Origin: an uncultured Planctomycetaceae bacterium
Lineage (GTDB): Bacteria; Planctomycetota; Planctomycetia; Planctomycetales; Planctomycetaceae
Direction of reading: 5' to 3'
Length of the DNA: 64,000 bases
Assembly: GCA_963813715.1 (NCBI GenBank)
Contig: CAWFAK010000007.1
Location: 896,001-960,000 of the forward strand
A program made the position numbers and the translations under genes. The notes under the pieces are model-generated. The model was not told where the DNA came from. It did no database searches and worked only from the letters and a program-made list of their open reading frames with translations. Below are positions 16,933 to 32,480 of this stretch, in pieces (position 1 is the first letter of the stretch; the number at the start of each line of letters is the position of its first letter).

Positions 16933-17013
16933 GGGTGGCACTGGCGGCTTGTCCGCCAGTGGGCCTTTTAGAGCGACAAGAAGACACTGGCGGACGAGCC
17001 GCCAGTGCCACCC
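16933..17013. repeat. Inverted REP-like pair
   Basis: GGGTGGCACTGGCGGCTTGTCCGCCAGTG ... CACTGGCGGACGAGCCGCCAGTGCCACCC. Confidence 0.7.
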
Positions 17014-17118
17014 ATCGGCAGAAAATGAGCTCGACACCGGGCCGCGGTTGCTGAAGAACCGCGGCCCGGTTGAGCCTGAACACTACAAGACGGCGCACCG
17101 CCCCTGCCGTGAGGCGCT

Positions 17119-18228
17119 TCACAGCAGGTTTACGATGCGATCCGTCAGGCCCTTCTCGCCGACAACGACATTCAGCTTGCCGCTGCCGGCGATCTTTTCC
17201 AGAACTTCCAGCTCACGCAGCCGCATGAGCGTCGGGTTGTCCGCCAGCAGCTTGGCCGTGTTGGCCTGGCTGCGGATGGCGGCCGTCTCTTCGCGGCGGG
17301 CGATGAGGTTGGCCTCGGCGGCCTTCTTGGCCTCCGTCACCTTGTTCATCAGGTCCTTCATGTCGCCCGGCAGGATCACATCCCGGATGCCCACCGACGC
17401 GATTTCCAGACCCAACTCGCCCGCCCGACGGCGCACGCTCTCCTCGACGTCCCGCGCCACGGCGTCCTTGTCCGTGAGGAAGTTGTCGAGCTCGCGCGCA
17501 CCGATCACGCTCCGCAGCACCAGCTGCGTCTCGCGATAGAGCGCCTGACGCACGTCGTCCGTCTGGCTGACGGCCTGCCGTGCGTCGACGACCTTGTAGG
17601 TCACCACGGCATTCAGCCGCAGCGTGACCTTGTCGGCCGTCATGATCTCCTGACCGCCGACGTCGACCATCGTCTCGCGCAGGTCGACCTCGACCACGAG
17701 GGCCTCGGCCGGACCCTTCCAGAAGGCGTACTCGCCCGGCGCCAGCGTCTCGACATAGCGGCCGTCGACGAAGAGCACGCCCGCGCAGTCGCGCTTCACC
17801 GTGCACACGTCCAGGTACCGCTGCGCCCTCGCCGAGCGGACGATCGCCTTGAACTGGTCGTGCTCGAAGCGAACGTGCCGCGCGTCGAGCACCTCGACGT
17901 CGACCCGCTTCTGGCCCTTCCAGTACGCGTACTGGCCGCCGGCCAGCACGTGGGCGAAGCGACCCTCGATCCACACGAGAGCCCGCTCGTAGTCCTTGAG
18001 GTCGAGCACCACGGCGCGGTCGCCGAGCGCACCCGACTTCACGATCAGGTCGAGCTTCTCGTGCGAGAGCCACGTCGCCCGCCGCGACACGACGTCGACC
18101 GCCACCTTGCGGAGCGGGTCGATGAACCAGTGCGTACCCTGCTCGAGCACGCGGCGGAACTCGCCGTCGCGGAAGTAGAGACCCATCTCGTAGCTGCGGA
18201 TCTTGTAACGCTTGAAGACGAACATCAT
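17119..18228 (-). CDS. Slipin-family SPFH/band-7 protein with three N-terminal repeats
   Basis: VDLRE..GQEIMTADKVTLRLN, GIRDVILPG, RREETAA.RS.ANTAK..NPTLMRLRELE; AGGAGG SD before ATG. Confidence 0.9.
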   Translation of the reverse strand: MMFVFKRYKIRSYEMGLYFRDGEFRRVLEQGTHWFIDPLRKVAVDVVSRRATWLSHEKLDLIVKSGALGDRAVVLDLKDYERALVWIEGRFAHVLAGGQYAYWKGQKRVDVEVLDARHVRFEHDQFKAIVRSARAQRYLDVCTVKRDCAGVLFVDGRYVETLAPGEYAFWKGPAEALVVEVDLRETMVDVGGQEIMTADKVTLRLNAVVTYKVVDARQAVSQTDDVRQALYRETQLVLRSVIGARELDNFLTDKDAVARDVEESVRRRAGELGLEIASVGIRDVILPGDMKDLMNKVTEAKKAAEANLIARREETAAIRSQANTAKLLADNPTLMRLRELEVLEKIAGSGKLNVVVGEKGLTDRIVNLL

Positions 18229-18239
18229 CCACCTCCTTC

Positions 18240-18715
18240 CCGGAGGATTTCTGAACGAGCTAACCAAGTCAGCTCGCTGAACTTCAGCTGCGAGCGCGCT
18301 CTGCGTAAGGTTCAAGACCACTGACGAAACGAACAGGAGAATAAAGACGCCGTCAGAGGGAAAAACGTTCGCCGATCACACGCAAAAACGCGGAAGGCGT
18401 TTGAGCCGCGGGCTCGCTGGGCGTCGACGCGTCTCGAGAATCGCCTTCGTTCGACGGCGTGCCGTCGAACCCTCAGCGATTCCGTCCCCGCGCCGTTGCC
18501 GAACGAGCGTCACGGCGGAATCCGCGCCCTACAGGGCGTGTTTACGTGTTGCCCAGACACGCCCGGACCCGTTGCCGAAGCACCGCTTTCGCGATCCTCG
18601 GCGGTTTCCGGCACGTGACTGAAGCCGATCGAACGAGCGTTTTCCCTCCTCGGGCGTTGCGGCGCGGTCTTGCGACCGCGTCGTCTCGGTTTCGAGCTCG
18701 GTTAACAGCCGAGTG
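18240..18715 (-). ncRNA. Candidate large structured ncRNA upstream of slipin
   Basis: No credible ORF; at least 8 hairpins incl. GCAA, GAAA and UUCG tetraloops on the minus strand. Confidence 0.65.
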
Positions 18716-18717
18716 CT

Positions 18718-18794
18718 TGGTGCTTGGTGCGGGAGTCGAACCCGCGACAGCCAGACCTTAAATCTGGTGCTCTTCCGACTGAGCTAACCGAAGT
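18718..18794 (-). tRNA. tRNA-like RNA, anticodon TAA, encoded CCA, imperfect acceptor
   Basis: ACTTCGGT-TAGCTCAGTCGGAAGAGC-CCAGA-TTTAAGG-TCTGG...GGGTTCGACTCCC-ACCAAGC-ACCA. Confidence 0.7.
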
Positions 18795-18901
18795 TGGTGA
18801 CGGCCGTTTTAGAACCCATGTCCGGAACACACGAACCTGATCCACGAGACCGCGTGCCAGTCTCGGGAGGCCCTTGCGCCGCTGGACGGGCCGACACCAC
18901 C
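18795..18901 (-). ncRNA. Candidate ~107-nt RNA closed by an acceptor-like stem
   Basis: 5' GGTGGTG pairs with 3' CGTCACC-A; GCCCGTCC/GGACATGGGT and CGAGAC/GTCTCG stems. Confidence 0.45.
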
Positions 18902-18918
18902 GAAGCAAGCCTGAAAAG

Positions 18919-18990
18919 AAACGCCGGTGGGAGTCGAACCCACTACAAGCCGCTTTGCAGGCGGCCGCCCTACCGTCTGGCTCCGGCGTT
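18919..18990 (-). tRNA. tRNA-Cys(GCA)
   Basis: GCCGC-CTGCAAA-GCGGC; TTCGACT loop; U73. Confidence 0.85.
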
Positions 18991-19015
18991 AGATGCGTTT
19001 CAAAGATCTCAAAAA

Positions 19016-19087
19016 TGTCCTCGCCAGGATTCGGACCTGGTCCTCGACCTTCGCAGAGTCGCGTGCGATCCACCACACTCCGAGGAC
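19016..19087 (-). tRNA. tRNA-Arg(GCG), T-loop TCCGAAT
   Basis: CGACT-CTGCGAA-GGTCG; acceptor GTCCTCG/CGAGGAC. Confidence 0.8.
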
Positions 19088-19108
19088 GTTGCGCACTTGT
19101 CGTGCGAG

Positions 19109-19179
19109 TACCCCGCCGAGGATTCGAACCTCGTCTGGCAGCTTCGAACACTGCCGTGCGTCCACCACACTCGCAGGGC
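19109..19179 (-). tRNA. tRNA-Arg(TCG)
   Basis: GCAGT-GTTCGAA-GCTGC; acceptor GCCCTGC/GCGGGGT. Confidence 0.8.
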
Positions 19180-19259
19180 AATTCGTAGAACTCGCATTGA
19201 AGAAAACGAAGCACCCGACGGCTCACGCCGTCGGCTCGCCGGGTCTCCTCGCGCTTTCA

Positions 19260-19331
19260 TGTCTCGACCTGGATTCGAACCAGGACCAGGACCTTCGGAG
19301 GGTCCGATGCGATCCGTTACACCATCGAGAC
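19260..19331 (-). tRNA. tRNA-Arg(CCG)
   Basis: GGACC-CTCCGAA-GGTCC. Confidence 0.9.
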
Positions 19332-19362
19332 GCTGTCGCCAAAATCTTCCAAAAGAACGCAG

Positions 19363-19436
19363 AGCCGACGGCTGGATTCGCACCAGCATCATCCTGTTTA
19401 CAAGACAGGCGCCTTTCTGTTTCGAGCCACGTCGGC
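19363..19436 (-). tRNA. tRNA-Thr(TGT), T-loop TGCGAAT
   Basis: CCTGT-CTTGTAA-ACAGG; acceptor GCCGACG/CGTCGGC. Confidence 0.8.
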
Positions 19437-19455
19437 ACTCAAACGATCGATCAAG

Positions 19456-19525
19456 CACGAACGCGAGGATTTGAACCCCGTCGGGCGGTTTTGGAGGCCG
19501 CCGGCTCTCCCAGGAGCACGCTCGT
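19456..19525 (-). tRNA. tRNA-Trp(CCA)
   Basis: GCGGC-CTCCAAA-ACCGC; TTCAAAT loop. Confidence 0.75.
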
Positions 19526-19550
19526 GTAAAGCCACGACCGGCGCGGACGG

Positions 19551-19634
19551 TTCCGGGAGGGCGAAGCTCCTGCTGAGCCAGCATTCTTCTGCAAGCAAAG
19601 CAGAGGTCGGCGGGAGCCTCGCCCTCCAGGAACA
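19551..19634. repeat. Inverted REP-like pair
   Basis: GGAGGGCGAAGCTCCTGCTGAGCC ... GTCGGCGGGAGCCTCGCCCTCC. Confidence 0.7.
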
Positions 19635-19635
19635 A

Positions 19636-20232
19636 TCAACTCTCCAGCGGGACGTTCCAATACGCCTCGCTGATGAACTTCGACCAGCTCATCATCCGCT
19701 CGCTCGTCCGTGCGTAGAGCGGCTTCCAGGCCGGTCGCACCGGCTCCCGATGCAGCTTCATCCGTGCCTGCGCCGGCGTGCGGTCGGCCTTGTGCTTGTT
19801 GCAGTCGATGCACGCCAGCACGCAGTTCTCCCACGTCGAGACGCCCCCTTGCGAACGCGGCACAACGTGGTCGATCGTCAGCTCGGCTCCGCCCGGCTGA
19901 CGGCCGCAGTACTGGCACGTCCAATGATCGCGCTTGTGGATGTTCCGCCGGCTGAAGGCGACCGCGGCCGTCGGCAGCCGGTTGTACTCCGCCAGCACGA
20001 TCACCTCCGGCACGCGCAGCGTCGACCGCACGCACTGGATGAAGTCGTCACCGTCGGCCGGCCGCAGCCGCGACCAGTCGGCCCACGTGTAGAGCCGAAA
20101 ATCGCGCGGATCGACGACGCGGGCCGCCTCGTTCCACAACAGCACCAGCGCCCGGGCGACCGTCGCCACGTTCACGGGCTGCCAGTTGCGATTGAGGACC
20201 AGCGCCGGCCGCTGGAGCGTTCGCGTCGTCAT
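19636..20232 (-). CDS. HNH endonuclease
   Basis: LVLNRNWQP, FSRRNI..RD..CQYCG..LTIDHVVPRSQGG.STWEN.VLAC..CN..K. Confidence 0.95.
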   Translation of the reverse strand: MTTRTLQRPALVLNRNWQPVNVATVARALVLLWNEAARVVDPRDFRLYTWADWSRLRPADGDDFIQCVRSTLRVPEVIVLAEYNRLPTAAVAFSRRNIHKRDHWTCQYCGRQPGGAELTIDHVVPRSQGGVSTWENCVLACIDCNKHKADRTPAQARMKLHREPVRPAWKPLYARTSERMMSWSKFISEAYWNVPLES

Positions 20233-20256
20233 GATTTTGTTCCTCCGCGAAAACAG

Positions 20257-20330
20257 GGTGCCCAGGGGGAGTTGAACCCACCCCTTCGACGTTCACAGCG
20301 TCGCGTGCAAACCGTTACACCACGGGCACC
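20257..20330 (-). tRNA. tRNA-His(GTG)
   Basis: CGACG-CTGTGAA-CGTCG; G-1:C73. Confidence 0.9.
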
Positions 20331-20419
20331 ATCCAATGGACCGTCCAAGGGACGGCTGGTGCCTCCGGCAGGGAAGTGCCCGCTGTCCTTCTGTCACACT
20401 TGTTGTTTGATAGGCAATT

Positions 20420-20491
20420 TGCCTCGACCAGGATTTGAACCCAGAACTCCTTGTTAGAAGCAAGGAATGATTTCCGTTTCACCATCGAGGC
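20420..20491 (-). tRNA. tRNA-Arg(TCT)
   Basis: CCTTG-CTTCTAA-CAAGG. Confidence 0.9.
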
Positions 20492-20507
20492 CCGTGGCTC
20501 GATCGAG

Positions 20508-20594
20508 CGGAAGGCAAGGGAATTGAACCCTCATCCGCACTCGGCGGAACCGCCTTAGCAGAGCGGCCCGGCCAACCGTATCCGGCTACCTTCC
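20508..20594 (-). tRNA. tRNA-Ser(GCT)
   Basis: CCGCT-CTGCTAA-GGCGG; long variable arm; G73. Confidence 0.85.
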
Positions 20595-20663
20595 GTATTT
20601 TTGTCCTTCTTGTTTCTGTACTGCCTTATTTCTGTACCTGCGGGCACCGTCCGAGGCTTCGAA

Positions 20664-20734
20664 TGGACCGCCGGGGAATCGAACCCCGATTTCCTGGTTG
20701 CAAGCCAGGCGTCTTCCCGTTTGACGAGCAGCCC
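20664..20734 (-). tRNA. tRNA-Ala(TGC)
   Basis: CCTGG-CTTGCAA-CCAGG; G3:U70. Confidence 0.9.
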
Positions 20735-20741
20735 GGGTTGG

Positions 20742-20851
20742 AGAGTCCAAAGTCCAAGGTCCAACGTCCAAAGTCGGAAAGACAAAAAGACCGCGGCCGC
20801 CGTCGTCTCTTGTTTTCTGACCTTGCTTTGGACTTTGGACTTCTGGACCTT
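20742..20851. repeat. Heptamer tandem repeats (AAAGTCC-like), direct block plus inverted block
   Basis: agagtcc aaagtcc aaggtcc aacgtcc ... tttggac tttggac ttctggac. Confidence 0.8.
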
Positions 20852-20866
20852 CGCCATTAGGCGAAT

Positions 20867-20942
20867 TGACCGAGGTGGGAGTCGAACCCACAAAGTCACG
20901 GCGCTCTCGACACCGCCGCTTTGCCGGTTTGCGTACTCGGCC
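20867..20942 (-). tRNA. tRNA-Leu(GAG), short variable arm, C33
   Basis: CGGTG-TCGAGAG-CGCCG; Leu-type D loop; A73. Confidence 0.75.
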
Positions 20943-20972
20943 GTTTTTGCACTATCTCCTTCGTTCGATCAG

Positions 20973-21041
20973 TAGCAGGTCCGGGTGTCGCACCCGGCCG
21001 GTGGAGCTTATGAGGCCCCACTGGGCACTGGCCCCCCTGCG
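20973..21041 (-). tRNA. tRNA-Met(CAT)-like, C1 mismatch, reduced D arm
   Basis: GGGGC-CTCATAA-GCTCC; T arm CCGGG-TGCGACA-CCCGG. Confidence 0.65.
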
Positions 21042-21089
21042 TCATCGCGTCAAATAACGCTGCGTGATTCGACGATTCGTTGTTTGAAG

Positions 21090-21172
21090 TGACCAAGGGG
21101 AGAGTCGAACTCCCACGCCCGCGGGGCACGACATTCTGAGTGTCGCGTGTCTGCCAGTTCCACCACTTGGTC
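21090..21172 (-). tRNA. tRNA-Leu(CAG)
   Basis: CGACA-CTCAGAA-TGTCG; long variable arm. Confidence 0.9.
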
Positions 21173-21237
21173 GTTGTCGCATGTTCTCGGCGAGCGTGGT
21201 CGGTTCGTCGATTCGGTTCTGATTGCCTCGATGAAAG

Positions 21238-21310
21238 CGACCCGTGCGGGAGTCGAACCCGCCTTTGCGGCTTGAGGGGCCGCCGTCCTATGCCAATAGA
21301 CGAACGGGCC
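21238..21310 (-). tRNA. tRNA-Glu(CTC), C33
   Basis: GCGGC-CCCTCAA-GCCGC. Confidence 0.85.
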
Positions 21311-21340
21311 GAATTGTTCGTCGCATTTCCAATTGACGAG

Positions 21341-21422
21341 TGCGTCGGGCAGGAGTCGAACCTGCAATGCCATCAGGCGGGTGGTTTACAGTCACTGGGG
21401 CACGCCAATGCCCAGCCGACGC
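21341..21422 (-). tRNA. tRNA-Tyr(GTA)
   Basis: AGTGA-CTGTAAA-CCACC (imperfect stem); variable arm. Confidence 0.8.
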
Positions 21423-21440
21423 GTATTTGTTCTCTCGAAG

Positions 21441-21515
21441 TGGCACGAGTGGGAGTCGAACCCACAGACCACGAAGGTTTGAGCTTCGCCGCTTTGCCAG
21501 TTTGCGTACCGTGCC
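21441..21515 (-). tRNA. tRNA-Leu(CAA), short variable arm
   Basis: CGAAG-CTCAAAC-CTTCG. Confidence 0.8.
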
Positions 21516-21534
21516 CTCTCGCGATTTCTCGAAG

Positions 21535-21609
21535 CGTCTCCGATGGGATTCGAACCCACGATCTCCACCGTGACAGGGTGGCGGGGACGGCCAACTCCCC
21601 TACGAAGAC
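21535..21609 (-). tRNA. tRNA-Asp(GTC)
   Basis: CCACC-CTGTCAC-GGTGG; G73. Confidence 0.9.
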
Positions 21610-21687
21610 CGGCGTTGCCGGCTTGTGCCTCCGGCAGGCAGACGAAGGACCGCAGGGTTATGCTTGCGGTTCGCCTCAATTCTTCAG

Positions 21688-21759
21688 TAATCCCGGATGG
21701 ACTCGAACCATCGTTGCCTGGGTGTAGGCCAGGAGTCGTTGCCGCTGGACCACGGGATC
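21688..21759 (-). tRNA. tRNA-Val(TAC), C33
   Basis: CCTGG-CCTACAC-CCAGG. Confidence 0.85.
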
Positions 21760-21833
21760 TTTTTGTTCTGAACGCGTTGTGCGAATTGGACGGCTCCCGA
21801 TGGTCGCCTTTCTTCGTGTAGTGCGATTAGCAG

Positions 21834-21919
21834 CGGAAGCCGTGGGACTCGAACCCACAATTCGCGCACGGCGAACACCTGTTTTCGGGACAGGCCCCTC
21901 ATCCGGCCGGATGACTTCC
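21834..21919 (-). tRNA. tRNA-Ser(CGA), C33
   Basis: CCTGT-CCCGAAA-ACAGG; long variable arm. Confidence 0.8.
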
Positions 21920-21945
21920 GTGAGATACGAACTTAGCTTTTCCAG

Positions 21946-22021
21946 TTGCGGGGGCTGGAATCGAACCAGCGGCCTCCAGGTTCAGAGCCTGGCGTCACGT
22001 ACCAGCAGCAACTGCCCCGCA
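21946..22021 (-). tRNA. tRNA-Gln(CTG)
   Basis: CCAGG-CTCTGAA-CCTGG; U1:A72. Confidence 0.85.
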
Positions 22022-22066
22022 GCGTGTTTTGCCCTCTTATTAACGAGCGTCCGTCGGTGAAAACTG

Positions 22067-22137
22067 TTCGGGGAGAAGGATTCGAACCTTCATCACCTGC
22101 TTCAAAGGCAGGCAGCCTACCGTTAGCCGATCCCCGA
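22067..22137 (-). tRNA. tRNA-Gln(TTG)
   Basis: CCTGC-CTTTGAA-GCAGG; U1:A72. Confidence 0.85.
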
Positions 22138-22166
22138 GCACGCGCGCTTTCAAATTCCATCCACAA

Positions 22167-22238
22167 AGTGCCCTGCGGGAGTTGAACCCGCCTCGCCGGC
22201 TTGGAAGGCCGGCACCTTTGCCGCTCGGCCAAGGGCAC
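22167..22238 (-). tRNA. tRNA-Gly(TCC)
   Basis: CCGGC-CTTCCAA-GCCGG; U73. Confidence 0.85.
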
Positions 22239-22258
22239 AGTCGTTTCAATTTCTCAGG

Positions 22259-22345
22259 CGGAAGCCGTGGGACTCGAACCCACAAGCGAGTGGTTGCTCG
22301 CCTCCTGTTTTCAAGACAGGACCCTCATCCGGCCGGATGGCTTCC
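22259..22345 (-). tRNA. tRNA-Ser(TGA)
   Basis: CCTGT-CTTGAAA-ACAGG; long variable arm. Confidence 0.85.
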
Positions 22346-22372
22346 GTGAGACAACAAATTTTCGACAGACAG

Positions 22373-22447
22373 CTGCGGCGGCAGGAATCGAACCTGCGTC
22401 GGGATGATTAACAGTCACCTGCCCGTACCAACACGGGCCCCACCGCA
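22373..22447 (-). tRNA. tRNA-Asn(GTT)
   Basis: GGTGA-CTGTTAA-TCATC; U1:A72, G73. Confidence 0.85.
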
Positions 22448-22509
22448 ATGCGACTTCTTCTTCCTCCGGAGAACCGGCGGGCTAACACCCGCGCGCTCGC
22501 CTGCGAAAG

Positions 22510-22580
22510 AGCACCCAGCGGGAGTCGAACCCGCACTTCCGCCCTGGCAAGGCAGCAGGCTGCCGCTACATCATGGGTGC
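22510..22580 (-). tRNA. tRNA-Gly(GCC)
   Basis: CTGCC-TTGCCAG-GGCGG; U73. Confidence 0.85.
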
Positions 22581-22712
22581 GTTTTTTTGTCCTGGTCGAG
22601 TTGTCAAAGAACCATGCACACGGAACGGTCGTCCGCGCAAATTCAAACGCGACGGCCGAAGGGCCGTGCCGAATAACCACGGCGGCCAAAGGGGCCGCGA
22701 AAACTAACGCAG

Positions 22713-22784
22713 AGCACAGGGTGGGACTCGAACCCACGTTTCCGCATTACGGGTGCGGAGTCCTCGCCGCTGAACGACCCGTGC
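22713..22784 (-). tRNA. tRNA-Thr(CGT), C33
   Basis: CCGCA-CCCGTAA-TGCGG. Confidence 0.85.
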
Positions 22785-22831
22785 TTGCCGTTGTCGAACT
22801 GTCGCCGTCAAACTCGTCGTCATCTCATCAG

Positions 22832-22904
22832 TGGGACCAGAGGGACTTGAACCCTCACCGACCTGGTTAAGAGCCAGGCATGCTGCCGCTAACACCTTGA
22901 TCCC
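22832..22904 (-). tRNA. tRNA-Lys(CTT)
   Basis: CCTGG-CTCTTAA-CCAGG. Confidence 0.9.
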
Positions 22905-22920
22905 GTGTGCGTTTCCGAAG

Positions 22921-22992
22921 TGGGGCCGGAGGGATTTGAACCCACGCCTCGCAGATTAAAAGTCTGCTGTGCTACCGTTACACCACGACCCC
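22921..22992 (-). tRNA. tRNA-Lys(TTT)
   Basis: GCAGA-CTTTTAA-TCTGC. Confidence 0.9.
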
Positions 22993-23066
22993 GCGTGTGG
23001 CCGTGGCTCTGTTTCTTCCGGTACCGTCGGGTCACTTTTTTATCTCCGAAAAAAAGCCCAAAAGAG

Positions 23067-23137
23067 TCGCTCGGGGTGGAGTCGAACCACCGTTTTCGCC
23101 TTATCAGAGCGACGTACTTCCGTTGCACTACCGAGCG
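23067..23137 (-). tRNA. tRNA-Ile(GAT)
   Basis: TCGCT-CTGATAA-GGCGA. Confidence 0.85.
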
Positions 23138-23159
23138 TGCTGCTCCTGCATTTCTTCAG

Positions 23160-23231
23160 TCGGGATGGCTGGAATCGAACCAGCTTCCACGTGTTCCCGA
23201 AACACGCGGGCGCCCGGAGCCCTTCATCCCG
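23160..23231 (-). tRNA. tRNA-Pro(CGG)
   Basis: CGTGT-TTCGGGA-ACACG; C1:G72, A73. Confidence 0.85.
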
Positions 23232-23251
23232 TTCTTGTTTGTCTTCTCGAA

Positions 23252-23323
23252 TGACTCGTGCGGGATTTGAACCCGCGTCGCCGCCTTGAAAGGGCAGAAT
23301 CCTCACCGTTAGACGAACGAGCC
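23252..23323 (-). tRNA. tRNA-Glu(TTC)
   Basis: CTGCC-CTTTCAA-GGCGG. Confidence 0.9.
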
Positions 23324-23359
23324 TTTTCTTCGTGCATCAGCGCGCAAGCTGAGCGCAAG

Positions 23360-23431
23360 TGGGTCGGGAGGCGCTCGAATCCTCGTCCCCTGGTTTTCAG
23401 CCAGGCGCTAAACCGTCTCAGCTACCGACCC
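23360..23431 (-). tRNA. tRNA-Phe(GAA), first gene of the array
   Basis: CCTGG-CTGAAAA-CCAGG; T stem has an A/G mismatch. Confidence 0.85.
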
Positions 23432-23491
23432 ATGGTCCGGCCGTGTCGTTCCGCACGTGTTGCCCGGCACGACGAAACAAAAGAGCCAAAC

Positions 23492-23523
23492 AAAAAAAGC
23501 CCGATGTCTTTGTGACACCGGGC
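23492..23523 (-). terminator. Intrinsic terminator/attenuator in the tRNA-array leader
   Basis: GCCCGGTGTC-ACAAA-GACATCGGGC followed by TTTTTTT. Confidence 0.85.
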
Positions 23524-23560
23524 CGACGAGAGTCTTGCTCTCCACAGGGTTGGGCCAGCG

Positions 23561-23680
23561 TCACAAGTGCCGCGGATATGAAAACGGATTCCCACCGGGC
23601 AACGTCTTGGCAATTTGACGTCCCTGCTGGGCGGAATAACCCGCGGATATTTGCATCGAGCTGGGCCAGAGGCATGCCAT
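23561..23680 (-). CDS. Putative leader peptide, 39 aa: MACLWPSSMQISAGYSAQQGRQIAKTLPGGNPFSYPRHL
   Basis: Hand translation; stop codon lies inside the antiterminator strand; in-frame GTG at 23698 is an alternative start. Confidence 0.6.
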   Translation of the reverse strand: MACLWPSSMQISAGYSAQQGRQIAKTLPGGNPFSYPRHL

Positions 23681-23749
23681 GGAACGAGTGCTTTCCACTG
23701 CGTCGTTGATGTCGCGAATCGCAAAAACGTTTGCGACTCGTCTGCTCGC

Positions 23750-23777
23750 TTAGACGCGGCCGGAACACGGAAGGTTC
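23750..23777 (-). promoter_or_regulatory. ECF sigma-like promoter
   Basis: GAACCT-N16-GTCTAA, matching the RpoE-type GAAC..-N16/17-GTC/TC pattern. Confidence 0.6.
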
Positions 23778-23875
23778 ACGGCGATTTCGAGAATTTTTTT
23801 ATTCGCCGGACCGAAGGGGGGGCTGCGTTGCCTTTCTCGCTCGTCGGGCGGACGAGGAGGATTGCGCGCGAAGCT

Positions 23876-26234
23876 TTAGTTCAGCCCCTTCTGCGCCTCG
23901 GCGTTCGAGGGGTCGATCGTCAGAACTTTCCGAAAGCAGTCCTTGGCCTGTTCGTCGCGGTCGAGTGATTTCAGCACCTGGCCGCGCAAGGTCAGCAGGT
24001 TGACCTGGTTCTTGAGCACATTCTCTCGCGTGGCCGGCATTCCCTTGGGGACCGCTTTTTGCCATTGGTCCGGGTGCTCGAGCAGGCGGGTCAGCATGGC
24101 GATGCCGACGCCCAGCTCGCGCTGTTCCTGCTCGCGTGCGTCGGGTGCGATTTCCACGTTGTTGATCTTGATGCCGTCGAGCCGATCCAGCACCTGGCTC
24201 AGAATCGCGTGCGAGCCGACGTCGTCGGGCGCGAGCCGCAGCCGCTGTAGCGTGAAGAAGTACGCCGCCACCGGATCGAGCGCGGCCAGCTTGATGCCTC
24301 CCTGCAGGTCGGCCGGCGTGTAGGGACGGGAGAAGCGATCGGCCAGGCCGACCTCCGCCTGGTTCACCTTGGAGATGCGTCGCCAGGCGACCTGGCGGGC
24401 GGCGTGCAGCTCCGCGCAGCCTGGATCGACCATCAGTCCCCGCTCGATCACGCGGTCGGCCAGTTGCTGATCGTAGAACACGGCTTCGACGTGCGCCCAA
24501 AGATAATAGACGCGCGGATCCATTGGCTCGAGCTTGAGCGCGAGATCCTCCACGGCCGCCACGCGCGGCGCGTCGTTGGTGCGAGTGAGCTGGTCCATGC
24601 GATCGGCAGCGGCCAGTTCGGCGGCCGTCGGCTGGCGGGTGTAGGTCGTCGTGGTGACTTCGACTTTTCCCCCGCCGATATTGCGCCGCGAGCTCGCCGA
24701 CCAGGTTTTCGGCAATCGCATGCGCTCGGCGCTCAGCAGGTTCTCGCTGCCGCGAACTCGGTTGTACTCCGCATAAATCATCAGTTGCAGCGGATCGGTC
24801 GGGTTGAGCGAATCCCCCTGCCCCAGCGCCGGGCCGTTCCCTCCGATCAGCCAGTTGAGCCGCGTGAGTTGCCGCTCGAACTCCAGGTCATTCTGCCCCA
24901 GTGCGCGGATCGCCTTGAGGGTGTCGCTCGCCCGCCGCAGATGCTTGGAAAAGACGTGCGTGTGCGGCGGGTCCTCCATTTTGTAGAGCCATTCGCCCGT
25001 CCGCAGGTTGAGCACCACGTGCGTCTGGTTGCGAGTGCCGAGCGCTTCCTTGGTGGTTTCGAACTGGCGATCGAACCAGAACTCACTCTTTCGGCCGTTG
25101 CCGATCTCGGTGACGACGGGGCTGGCGAGCGCCGTCTTTTTCTCGCGTTCGATCTCATCAACGAGCCGCTTGAAGAGGGCCACTTGCGGGCCGAGATCCT
25201 TCGGATCCTCTTTGACGGCCTGCTCGAGCGCCGCCAGCCCGCGGGTCGCGTCGTCGCGACGGACCGCTTCGACGCGCGTCCACCAGTCGGCCATCTTGTC
25301 GAGGGCCGTACGGATCTCGTCGTCGCTGCGGCCGTCGCGAACGAGGGCCCGCAAGCCGCGGCAAATGCTCTCCGACTTCTGCGCGACGGCCAGCTTGTCG
25401 AAGGTGCCGATCTGCTCGGCGGGCGAATCAAGCGGTATTTCTCCTTCGGGAAAGACAAACTCGCCGATGGGCGACGGCGGGATCAGTTTGTGGCGCGTGT
25501 AAATCTGCACACCGACAGCCGGCTCCCGCTTGGAGAGGGGCGCGCCGGTCGCCGCGTCGAGATATAAAAAAGTGCCGTAGGCCCGGTCGACGACGACGTC
25601 GCGATCGCGGACGGCCAGCATTCGCCAGACGACCTTGCCCTTGGGGGCGTGGGCCTCGGTGTCCGCCAGCTTGACGGGCAGGTGTCGCAGGACGCCGTAC
25701 AACGGATAGGACGTCGGCTCTTCGTTCGAGTTCACTGCGACGGGCGGCTCCGCACCGGGCCGCAGCAGCTGGACGTAAATTTGATCTTCGCGGACGGTGG
25801 GGGCCAGGTCCCACAGTCCGCGGACGGCTTCTTCAGGCGACAAGACACCGTCGGGCAGTGCTGCGGGTCTGGAGGAGGCGTCGAGCGCGTAGGGACTGTT
25901 GAACATCTTGCGGCCCTCGACTCGCACTTCGAGAGCCATCCCTTCGGCCTTCGGCGCGAAATACAAGAACCGTGCACCAACCGGTTCAAAGCGCGAGCGC
26001 GTGTAAGCGCCCCACAAATCGACGCGGAACAGCTTTGCGCCGGCATTCCAATTGACGGCAGCAGCGTTCGCCTGATTGCGAACCGCAGCAAACTCCTGCA
26101 GGCTGGCGGTGGGCTCGCCAGCGGACGGCGGCGACGGCGGCGATTGCTAACCTTGCAGTCGCAACCGCAAAGCCCAATGACAGCCAGGCGACGCGCAGGA
26201 AACGACGCGCCGCGAACCCGTGGCCCGTGTTCAT
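23876..26234 (-). CDS. Secreted TPR-containing hypothetical protein (frameshift near 5' end)
   Basis: C-terminal TPR (AKDCFRKVLTIDPSNAEA); signal-like N-terminus in another frame. Confidence 0.7.
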
Positions 26235-30963: not shown

Positions 30964-32426
30964 TCAGCCCTTGATGACGCCGATCGGGCGCAGGCGAGCG
31001 ACCTTTTTGGCCAGTCCCGCGCGGTGCACGACCTCCACGACGAGGTCGACGTCCTTGTAGGCGTCGGGCTGTTCCTCGGCCAGGCCCTGCCACGAGCGGG
31101 CCTGCGCGATCACGCCGCGCTGCCGCAGCTCCTGGTCGATTCTCCGCCCCTTCGACTGCTTGACGGCTGCTGTGCGACTCATCAGCCGCCCCGCGCCGTG
31201 GCACGCGCTGCCGAAGGTTTGCTCCATGCTGCCGGGCTGACCCAACAGCACCCAGCTGGCCCGACCCATGTCGCCGGGAATCAGCACGGGCTGACCGACC
31301 TCGTGATAATCGGCGGGCAGCTCGGCGTGATGAGGCGGATAGGCGCGTGTCGCCCCCTTGCGGTGGACCCACACGCGCTTGGCCGTGCCGTCGACGTCGT
31401 GCTCCTCGAACTTGGCGATGTTGTGGGCCACGTCGTAAACCAGCTCGAGCCCCAGCTCGTCCCACGTCCGCCCGAAGATCCGCTCGAAGACTTCCCGCGC
31501 CTGCCACATGAGCAGTTGGCGGTTGCCCCAGGCGAAGTTTGCGGCCGCCCGCATCGCGCCGAGATAGTGCTGCCCCTCGTGGCTGTGCACTGGCGCAGGC
31601 CAACTGTCGGTCGGGCAGCTCGATGCCGTATTTTTCGGGCACTCCCCGCAAAGCGCGCAGGCGCGTCGTCGCAGACCTGGTAACCGAGGCCTCGCGAGCC
31701 GGAATGAATCATCACGCAGACCATCTTCTCGGCCAGGCCAAGCGTGGCGAGCGCCTCCGCATCAAACACGCGGTCGACCACCTGCACCTCCAGGAAGTGG
31801 TTGCCCGAGCCGAGCGTGCCGCACTGGTCGTACCCCCGATCGAGGGCGCGGTCGCTGACGAAATCGGGGCGGGCGCCTTCCAGACAGCCGCGGCCCTCCG
31901 TGAATTCGAGATCGCGCTCGGTCGCCAGCCCGCGTTCTTGCAGGAACTGCGGTCCCAGCTCGAGCAAGCGCCGCAGCTCGTGGTGGTCGAACTTGTACTT
32001 GCCCCCGTGGCCGGCCCCCGTCGGTACACAGCGAAAGAGTTCGCGGACGAGCGTCTCGATTGCCGGCCGAACGTCGGTCTCGCTCAGATTGCTCCGCATG
32101 AGCCGCACGCCGCAATTGATGTCGTAGCCGACGCCGCCGGGCGAGATCACGCCCCCTTCTTCCGGGTCGGTCGCGCAGACGCCGCCGATGCAGAATCCGT
32201 AGCCCCAATGGATGTCGGGCATCGCCAGGCTGGCTCGCTGAATTCCCGGCAGAAACGCGACGTTGGCCACCTGCTCCGCGGCGTCGTCCCGGCGGATCAA
32301 CTCCATGAGCGCATTGTCGGCGTAGATCAAGCCGTCGACGCGCATGCCCCGCTTGTAGGATTTCGGGATCCGCCACAAGCACTCGTTCACGCGCTCGAGC
32401 GGTCCGGCAAATTGTTTCGAGGGCAT
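30964..32426 (-). CDS. rtcB: RtcB RNA ligase (frameshifts ~31590-31660)
   Basis: MPDIHWGYGF, GYDINCGV, GTLGSGNHFLE, HSGSRG, DVAHNIAK, VHRKGATRA, SACHGAGR, EEQPDAYK. Confidence 0.95.
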
Positions 32427-32480
32427 ATCCTTCGCTCTCAATCAGACGGCACGGCATCAAGTCGCGCGGTGCCGCCTCGT

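Follow-up and report, generated by a model that had tools for sequence, protein, structure and literature searches.

Long tRNA arrays (L-arrays) and a predicted pair of a Band-7 protein and a tRNA-like RNA are the described systems that come closest to the locus reported here. A tRNA array unit is defined by at least 20 tRNA genes at a density of at least 2 per kb (Tran et al. 2016, PMC4758250), and the Planctomycetes are among the phyla listed with long arrays in the accessible parts of PMC4758250 and PMC8421152. The accessible text of PMC8421152 describes the L-array of Anabaena as silent and inducible by inhibitors that impair translation, and as associated with an HNH gene, which lies upstream of cyanobacterial L-arrays; rtcB is linked with these arrays as well. 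A Band-7 protein and a predicted, unvalidated 'b7a-tRNA' beside RtcB are attributed to Burroughs & Aravind 2016 in the available part of bioRxiv 10.1101/312249, which also covers the bacterial Y RNAs (YrlA) with their tRNA-mimicking domain, their Ro60/Rsr partner and their location near RNA-repair genes in some bacteria. Here, a tRNA array that ends in a large structured RNA and a gene for an SPFH/stomatin-like protein was analyzed in a 64,000-nt window (positions 896001 to 960000 of contig C7, CAWFAK010000007.1) of the genome of an uncultured Planctomycetaceae bacterium from soil. The source assembly (GCA_963813715.1, termed G000; relatives are labelled G002 onward) comprises 7.49 Mb in 18 contigs and is 82.6% complete.

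Positions 16983 to 23800 of the window form a single co-oriented unit on the minus strand, which contains an upstream block, a leader, the tRNA array with an HNH gene, the large RNA, the SPFH gene and a terminator. An original prediction made from the sequence of this window had proposed such a minus-strand unit of tRNA, HNH, RNA and SPFH genes and had interpreted it as an emergency tRNA-resupply and RNA-repair system. The unit is confirmed as described, the same block is found in relatives, and the interpretation is largely borne out for anatomy and evolution, with the exception of a linkage with RtcB. Both of its literature links are real, namely that of HNH and rtcB with cyanobacterial L-arrays and that of a Band-7 protein and a tRNA-like RNA beside RtcB. 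We favor the reading that a horizontally spreading, supernumerary L-array was joined to a Band-7/SPFH RNA module behind a leader-peptide attenuator and serves as a translation-stress response, and assign it a probability of about 0.6. The unit ties together two systems that were predicted separately, the L-arrays and the never-validated Band-7/b7a-tRNA pair. While these components are known in outline as long tRNA arrays with HNH genes and as a predicted Band-7 and b7a-tRNA pair, no report of their fusion, of a leader-peptide attenuator or of the extra RNA domains was found in the literature covered, the original b7a-tRNA paper and the supplements of the array papers being outside its scope.

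ARAGORN was used to identify 35 tRNA genes in the window, 32 of which form a head-to-tail series on the minus strand (18718 to 23431). These 32 calls within 4,714 nt correspond to 6.8 per kb and make the unit an array by the definition of Tran et al. Gaps between the genes do not exceed 146 nt except at the 597-nt HNH gene, and the uniform orientation and the spacing fit co-transcription. The Rfam tRNA clan matched 31 of the 32 calls at E≤1, including 25 that reached the gathering score, and Arg-tcg at 19108-19179 was the sole array call without such a match. 'Leu-taa' (18718-18793), the last of the calls, represents no ordinary tRNA but belongs to the large RNA as its tRNA-like domain, so that the array consists of 31 tRNA genes and a non-canonical tRNA-Met-like gene. 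Its first part (20256-23431; ARAGORN and Rfam) holds 25 tRNA genes from Phe to His together with the Met-like gene in an order that is kept in relatives, and its second part (18918-19525; ARAGORN) holds the genes for Trp, Thr, Arg (three copies) and Cys. The Met-like gene at 20962-21039 has a CAT anticodon, the T-loop TGCGACA and a weak Rfam tRNA-like match. It is missed by ARAGORN in this window, yet the element is found between Leu-cag and Leu-gag in all 11 arrays, and the same slot is called tRNA-Met in 6 relatives. The 33 tRNA-like genes that had been predicted are thus accounted for by 31 tRNAs, the Met-like gene and one domain of the large RNA, and the predicted coverage of all 20 amino acids holds only if the Met-like gene is counted.

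The G000 assembly contains 87 tRNA genes, and the 55 that are dispersed outside the array make the array supernumerary. Array tRNAs show identities of only 0.47-0.70 to the housekeeping tRNAs of the same anticodon, and their CCA ends are not encoded. Housekeeping genes for tRNA-Cys, Arg-tct and Arg-ccg were not found outside the array in this 82.6%-complete assembly, and a loose pattern search for tRNA-Cys gave nothing better than the control. As a housekeeping tRNA-Cys gene exists elsewhere in G002, G003, G005 and G009, the missing Cys gene probably reflects an assembly gap, and these copies in close relatives rule out that the array is the sole source of tRNA-Cys. Two further peculiarities of the G000 calls were noted, namely unusually long tRNAs of 84-97 nt (Arg, Ala, Thr, Val and Gly) and a 'tRNA-Stop(tta)' on contig C8. 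Structured RNAs other than tRNAs had also been predicted within the unit, which holds true for the large RNA at 18349-18901 but not for three hairpins in array gaps (20735-20866, 19526-19635 and 19180-19259). The latter are dispersed repeats that resemble repetitive extragenic palindromic (REP) elements and recur 33, 10 and 6 times elsewhere in the genome. Two of these three repeats are skipped by RNA-library contigs of relatives.

The large RNA is encoded on the minus strand upstream of the SPFH gene, spans approximately 550 nt and is composed of three domains. The 5' hairpin domain (18793-18901) contains helices 1-4 of an alignment of 23 full-length RNA copies (A1), in which 13 of its 19 pairs are changed on both sides. 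It is followed by a b7a-tRNA-like domain with an encoded CCA (18718-18793; ARAGORN call and alignment A1) and by a variable hairpin and a large 3' domain (18349-18717). The 3' domain is closed by a long-range helix of 18627-18655 with 18349-18377, and both this helix and the inner helices show compensatory changes. The A1 consensus contains 82 pairs, 54 of which show compensatory changes on both sides. Pairing was found in 93.6% of the alignment cells, compared to 37-47% with partners slid, and the covariation of 0.422 contrasts with 0.08-0.12 in slid controls and was reached by none of 500 shuffles. The minimum free energy (MFE) z-score of the single sequence 18349-18901 is -6.6. Rfam provided no match at E≤1 on 18232-18717 or 18794-18917, nor at E≤0.1 for the copy of Adhaeretor mobilis outside its tRNA-like part. 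The RNA is present in a single copy in the G000 genome.

The tRNA-like domain keeps the D, anticodon and T arms, and its acceptor stem comprises just 4 bp. A CCA after the acceptor 3' strand and discriminator is found in 40 of 109 elements. Its anticodon loop is hypervariable, with 81 distinct loops in 108 elements, 15 of which deviate from the seven-base length. The 93 seven-base loops display 38 different triplets; R37 is kept in 91 of them and U33 in only 64. This variability, together with the strong divergence of the array tRNAs from their housekeeping counterparts, would suit a unit that mainly guards against tRNA-cleaving toxins, in which spare tRNAs escape cleavage, the tRNA-like loop acts as a decoy or sensor and regulation is constitutive or follows another signal. 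Mycobacterial tRNA arrays were termed a putative anti-defense system in the accessible part of PMC12803027, and the Anabaena paper proposes in its accessible text that operonic tRNAs are sponges for toxin RNases (PMC8421152). We nevertheless regard this explanation as doubtful, even though it survives better than the other alternatives. The source organism has no known toxin or nuclease partner, the loop variability may simply mean a lack of constraint, and protection from toxins overlaps with a translation-stress response instead of excluding it.

The SPFH gene (17119-18228, minus strand) encodes a soluble stomatin-like protein of 369 amino acids, whose predicted identity agrees with a Band_7 match at 1.5e-29. 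Residues 143-355 match stomatin chains at 2e-35, and the N-terminal 142 residues consist of two repeats that are homologous to the first SPFH strands (hhalign probabilities of 99.2 and 98.6). The protein lacks a hydrophobic segment or membrane anchor (maximum KD19 of 1.01), and 40 of 41 orthologues stay below 1.6. No NfeD gene was found among the neighbors in the window or the 68 downstream genes scanned, PADLOC returned nothing for the SPFH protein, and NCBIfam gave only sub-threshold HflK matches. A hairpin (CCTCC-GGGAA-GGAGG) at 18232-18246, minus strand, encloses the Shine-Dalgarno sequence of the SPFH gene, is conserved in the close relatives aligned and may exert translational control of SPFH. 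The SPFH gene of G002 (locus L013, 6356-7510) is split into three frames, which points to a pseudogene or assembly errors.

Full-length SPFH orthologues are present in 17 of 41 relatives, and in all 16 loci examined tRNA or tRNA-like genes lie directly upstream on the same strand. On a wider scale, 62 of 401 Planctomycetota genomes carry an orthologue. Same-strand ARAGORN calls were found upstream in 35 of 40 loci from this phylum sample, and six of these 35 are arrays of 10-23 genes. SPFH relatives are encoded at 585 or more GTDB-representative loci (at least 585). For the analysis of RNA co-occurrence the best 80 of these loci were used, 70 of which have at least 700 nt of upstream sequence, and 66 of these 70 matched a hidden Markov model (HMM) of the non-coding region. 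The covariation within the RNA and this co-occurrence bear out the large RNA-slipin module of the original prediction. In about 23 of the 70 loci, with or without a long array, a tRNA-Cys gene is the immediate 5' neighbor of the large RNA, as is tRNA-Cys(GCA) at 18918-18990 in the window. A covariance model of the first two RNA domains (R1) gave a single hit of at least 79.9 bits each in 14 of the 41 relatives, every time beside SPFH. Ordinary tRNAs scored no more than 71 bits, a value that none of the 24 relatives without SPFH exceeded, and the divergent RNAs of G013, G026 and G037 could not be told from ordinary tRNAs by this model. The best 80 of the at least 585 loci include some from Desulfobacterales and Acidobacteriota as well as cultured strains, and just 2 of the 301 genomes in a Desulfobacterota sample carry an orthologue. 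Cultured carriers are Adhaeretor mobilis HG15A2, Singulisphaera acidiphila DSM 18658, Blastopirellula marina DSM 3645 and Lacipirellula limnantheis I41, which makes the function of the soluble SPFH protein and the RNA directly testable. The RNA combines strong covariation with a clear protein partner and has no Rfam family.

The invariable position of the RNA upstream of SPFH on the same strand, the hairpin that sequesters the Shine-Dalgarno sequence and the single genomic copy would also be expected if the RNA were only a cis-acting 5' untranslated region of the SPFH mRNA, with the tRNA-like domain as a processing signal for RNase P or RNase Z and no function in trans. Such a purely cis-acting leader appears improbable, as between about 33 nt and more than 2 kb separate the RNA 3' end from the SPFH start in different genomes, and genes on the opposite strand, encoding an AbiEii-like nucleotidyltransferase (type IV toxin-antitoxin) or a SUFU-like protein, are inserted between both in some genomes (loci L093, L034 and L035). 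In a Desulfobacteraceae locus (L139) it is RtcB that sits between the RNA and SPFH, and an RNA-library contig confined to the RNA points weakly to a discrete molecule.

The array keeps its order, at chromosomal sites that differ, in 10 of the 12 genus members as well as in G040, which belongs to another family. The embedded HNH gene (19636-20232, minus strand, 597 nt) lies between tRNA-His and tRNA-Trp, and its predicted identity is supported by a Pfam HNH match at 3.7e-15. Close homologues with 74-98% identity are found in G002-G007, G009, G011 and G040, and the gene is truncated in G008. Each of the ten loci with a close homologue contains 22-34 tRNA genes in the same order, and the HNH gene occupies the same position in all 10 related arrays. 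By contrast, two control loci with an HNH paralogue contained zero tRNA genes. Flanking genes are syntenic in G002, G003, G006, G007 and G009 and unrelated in G004, G005, G008, G011 and G040. The full block of leader, tRNA order, HNH, RNA and SPFH is present in the five syntenic genomes and, at an unrelated site, in G040, in agreement with the conserved gene order that the original prediction called for. The identity of tRNAs compared to spacers is 0.94 versus 0.56 in G003, 0.88 versus 0.34 in G005 and 0.81 versus 0.35 in G040, and this far better preservation argues for selection on the tRNAs. The SPFH protein of G040 is 77% identical, compared to 64-65% in genera of the same family. Based on these comparisons, the array is patchily distributed with signs of horizontal spread. 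In G004, G005 and G008 the main array is located elsewhere in the genome, yet SPFH remains grouped with tRNA-Cys, the odd 'tRNA' and a conserved non-coding stretch of about 450 nt.

A stand-alone HNH paralogue (57-68% identical) is found in most relatives, with matches in 40 of 41 genomes, and is located at C9:56454-57044 in G000. As it is near-universal in the class, a housekeeping role is suggested for this HNH family. A tblastn search of plasmids yielded 96 records with 32-47% identity, 12 of them from Nostoc. The homologue on a plasmid of Nostoc sp. TCL26-01 (36.5% identical) lies directly upstream of a 21-tRNA array, in line with the location of HNH described for cyanobacterial L-arrays (PMC8421152), and no tRNAs were found within 6 kb of the homologues on Acaryochloris and Tsukamurella plasmids. 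A selfish or neutral mobile element spread by an HNH homing endonuclease, with the SPFH adjacency resulting from insertion-site preference or shared ancestry, would account for the patchy distribution in differing chromosomal contexts and for an HNH gene of the same family heading a cyanobacterial plasmid array. The truncated HNH gene and split array of G008 and the array of Adhaeretor mobilis, which is devoid of HNH, could be read in the same way. This scenario is nonetheless unlikely, since the tRNAs are much more constrained than the spacers, the leader, the Met-like gene and the gene order are kept across families and orders, and the RNA-SPFH link also extends to other phyla; the stand-alone paralogues in 40 of 41 relatives further speak against a purely selfish HNH.

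The leader was analyzed in an alignment of the 350 nt upstream of tRNA-Phe from nine genomes, including the non-syntenic G004, G005 and G040. All of its elements are on the minus strand. A block at 23747-23800 (A-run ... GTGAACC ... CGCGTCTAAGCG) is a candidate promoter or operator, and its columns are invariant in all nine aligned leaders. A promoter-like site had been predicted, and while the block is kept in all nine genomes, no match to the sigma-70 consensus was found upstream of the unit. A leader open reading frame (ORF) of 39 codons and a TGA stop codon (23561-23680) is preceded by a GGAAAG Shine-Dalgarno-like motif. Its counterparts in the nine genomes have 33-42 codons and end at the same TGA, with indels that preserve the frame. 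The encoded peptide has conserved ends, opening with M-x-x-x-R/W-P-S and finishing with L-R/H-L-stop. The leader ORF is followed by an intrinsic terminator with an 11-bp stem and a T-run (23488-23524) before the first tRNA gene, and its hairpin (23498-23524) is paired in 96% of cells versus 32-46% with partners slid. Both the ORF and the terminator had been anticipated and are conserved in all nine genomes. A 13-nt antiterminator 5' strand (23552-23564) overlaps the leader stop codon and is complementary to the 5' arm of the terminator. This alternative pairing is found in 87.8% of cells versus 26-44% in slid controls and is the MFE fold of a transcript truncated before the terminator 3' arm in 9 of 9 genomes. 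The antiterminator strand contains a stop codon in 12 of 16 leaders. An HMM of the leader also matched the 5' end of shorter tRNA-RNA-SPFH clusters in four genomes (G020, G008, G043 and G157) and the 5' end of a 30-tRNA array in Adhaeretor mobilis. The leader ORF of the latter has 47 codons, and a synonymous change of its last codon from TTG to TTA is matched by a C to T change in the partner strand within the terminator loop. Besides this leader and the 30 tRNAs, A. mobilis HG15A2 carries the RNA, SPFH and RlaP.

That there is no attenuator at all, and that the hairpin merely terminates the upstream TPR gene next to a chance reading frame, would fit the location of the terminator downstream of a co-oriented gene (stop at 23876) and the little covariation in terminator and antiterminator, but can practically be dismissed because the ORF, its stop codon and the hairpin are kept where the upstream gene differs (OmdA in G003, G009 and G007; other genes in G004, G005, G040 and Adhaeretor) and indels keep the leader frame.

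The elements of the leader are arranged as in a trp-type attenuator, and rapid translation would favor termination. During efficient translation, the ribosome would reach the leader stop codon and cover the antiterminator strand, the terminator would form and the unit would remain silent. Stalling of the ribosome in the leader, be it due to tRNA damage or depletion, ribosome-targeting antibiotics or starvation, would allow the antiterminator to form first, and transcription would continue into the spare tRNA set and HNH and on through the large RNA and SPFH. The tRNA pool could then be refilled or replaced by these tRNAs, which are only 47-70% identical to the housekeeping isoacceptors, and the large RNA and the SPFH protein might jointly provide a scaffold for RNA handling. 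We infer this regulatory logic, the induction by stress and any repair or scaffold role, while anatomy, conservation, covariation, co-occurrence and the occurrence in RNA libraries are documented. The sequence itself suggests a direct, testable coupling of spare-tRNA expression to the speed of the ribosome. To our knowledge, the Anabaena array is the only one of the widespread long tRNA arrays with a known trigger, and its control by TrcR is specific to cyanobacteria.

Four metatranscriptomes from soil and rhizosphere contain contigs that cover the leader, the tRNAs, HNH, the large RNA and SPFH. One of these contigs, 396 nt in length, spans nothing but the RNA (18359-18754), which hints weakly at a discrete molecule, and a loose end at 18352 presumably is a sequencing adapter, which it resembles. 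The depth of 128 for this RNA-only contig (X17), compared to 3-11 for its neighbors, is a hint only and does not represent an expression level, and contigs that bridge genes are likewise a hint and not proof of single transcripts. Uncovered parts (23632-23875 in X5 and X9 as well as several tRNA bins in X17 and X18) were not used as evidence, and further runs such as X1-X4 were left out.

Several observations weigh against a stress-responsive unit of this kind. The support from metatranscriptomes consists of contigs alone, which carry no transcript starts, ends or strand and may include DNA. There is almost no covariation in the terminator and antiterminator of the nine close leaders, as 159 and 65 of 500 shuffles, respectively, reach the observed values; the terminator is too conserved to reveal covariation. 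A run of codons for a single amino acid is absent from the leader, whose peptides are of mixed composition, and such a leader would report the general speed of translation. In G004 and G005, the module of tRNA-Cys, RNA and SPFH lies far from the array and the leader, which indicates that both halves can work apart and that the module must have its own promoter there. According to the accessible text of Wang et al. 2023 (PMC10272220), the Anabaena array is controlled by the repressor TrcR and not by an attenuator. Lastly, no RtcB or other RNA ligase is adjacent to the module in the window, and RNA-repair families (RlaP, RtcB, RtcA and Pol-beta nucleotidyltransferase) follow SPFH in just 5 of 68 loci.

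A linkage of the unit with RtcB was not substantiated and is downgraded. RtcB is located at about 30967-32441 on the minus strand, 7.5 kb from the array and separated from it by unrelated genes. Of the 41 relatives, 39 have the gene, and its linkage to the array is confined to the syntenic group. The gene occurs within 4-5 of 129 SPFH loci; in two Desulfobacterales loci of this SPFH family RtcB and/or RtcA are adjacent. RtcB of the window is encoded in two overlapping frames (Pfam positions 1-211 and 222-426), which suggests a frameshift or an assembly indel, and the situation in G008 is similar. A TROVE/Ro60 gene was not found in the 82.6%-complete G000 assembly. Among the 16 neighboring ORFs scanned, a TPR protein, OmdA and a carboxylesterase are encoded upstream of the unit and a methyladenine glycosylase downstream. 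An origin as a prophage or integrative and conjugative element was rejected, as these ORFs include no integrase or phage family. The likely end of the unit is a terminator-like hairpin with an 11-bp stem 3' of SPFH (16983-17009, minus strand).

Other SPFH proteins assemble into closed cages. The SPFH domain architecture makes it conceivable, if rather speculative, that the soluble SPFH protein and the approximately 550-nt RNA form a closed cytoplasmic cage, i.e. a vault-like ribonucleoprotein within a transferable 'translation emergency kit'. The cage and the spare tRNA set would be made only when the attenuator senses stalled ribosomes, and the tRNA-like domain, which encodes a CCA and has a hypervariable anticodon loop, would act as a bait or decoy to which tRNA-targeting nucleases are drawn, or enzymes of tRNA repair or maturation would dock on it. 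If true, the unit would constitute a self-contained, horizontally transferable translation emergency system.

Ribosome-mediated attenuators comprise leader peptides of the trp, his and pheL type and the ribosome-stalling leaders of antibiotic-resistance genes. The leader described here shares with them a short leader ORF whose end is overlapped by an antiterminator strand, together with mutually exclusive hairpins, but its target is a tRNA array instead of biosynthetic or resistance genes. Like stomatin/slipin-NfeD scaffolds (9wmj, PH1511 3bk6 and QmcA 8z5g), the protein combines an SPFH domain with a C-terminal helical region, and it differs from them in the two extra N-terminal repeats and in being devoid of a membrane anchor and NfeD. 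The pair of YrlA and Ro60/Rsr likewise unites a non-coding RNA that has a tRNA-mimicking domain with a ring- or cage-forming protein; the RNA analyzed here is about four times longer and its partner is SPFH, with no TROVE/Ro60 found. The resemblance to the Band-7/b7a-tRNA pair lies in an SPFH/Band-7 protein beside a predicted non-coding RNA with a strong likeness to tRNA. In the present case, the tRNA-like part is one domain of an RNA of approximately 550 nt, RtcB is adjacent neither here nor in most planctomycete loci, and the module terminates a tRNA array. The accessible text of PMC8421152 on the cyanobacterial L-arrays does not mention band 7, stomatin, attenuation or a leader peptide. Like these arrays, the planctomycete unit holds dozens of packed, co-oriented and supernumerary tRNA genes, is patchily distributed and is associated with an HNH gene belonging to the same family. 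Here, however, the HNH gene is embedded, whereas it lies upstream of the array in cyanobacteria, an apparent leader-peptide attenuator takes the place of the ribbon-helix-helix repressor TrcR and the promoter repeats of Anabaena, and the last elements of the array are a large structured RNA and an SPFH gene.

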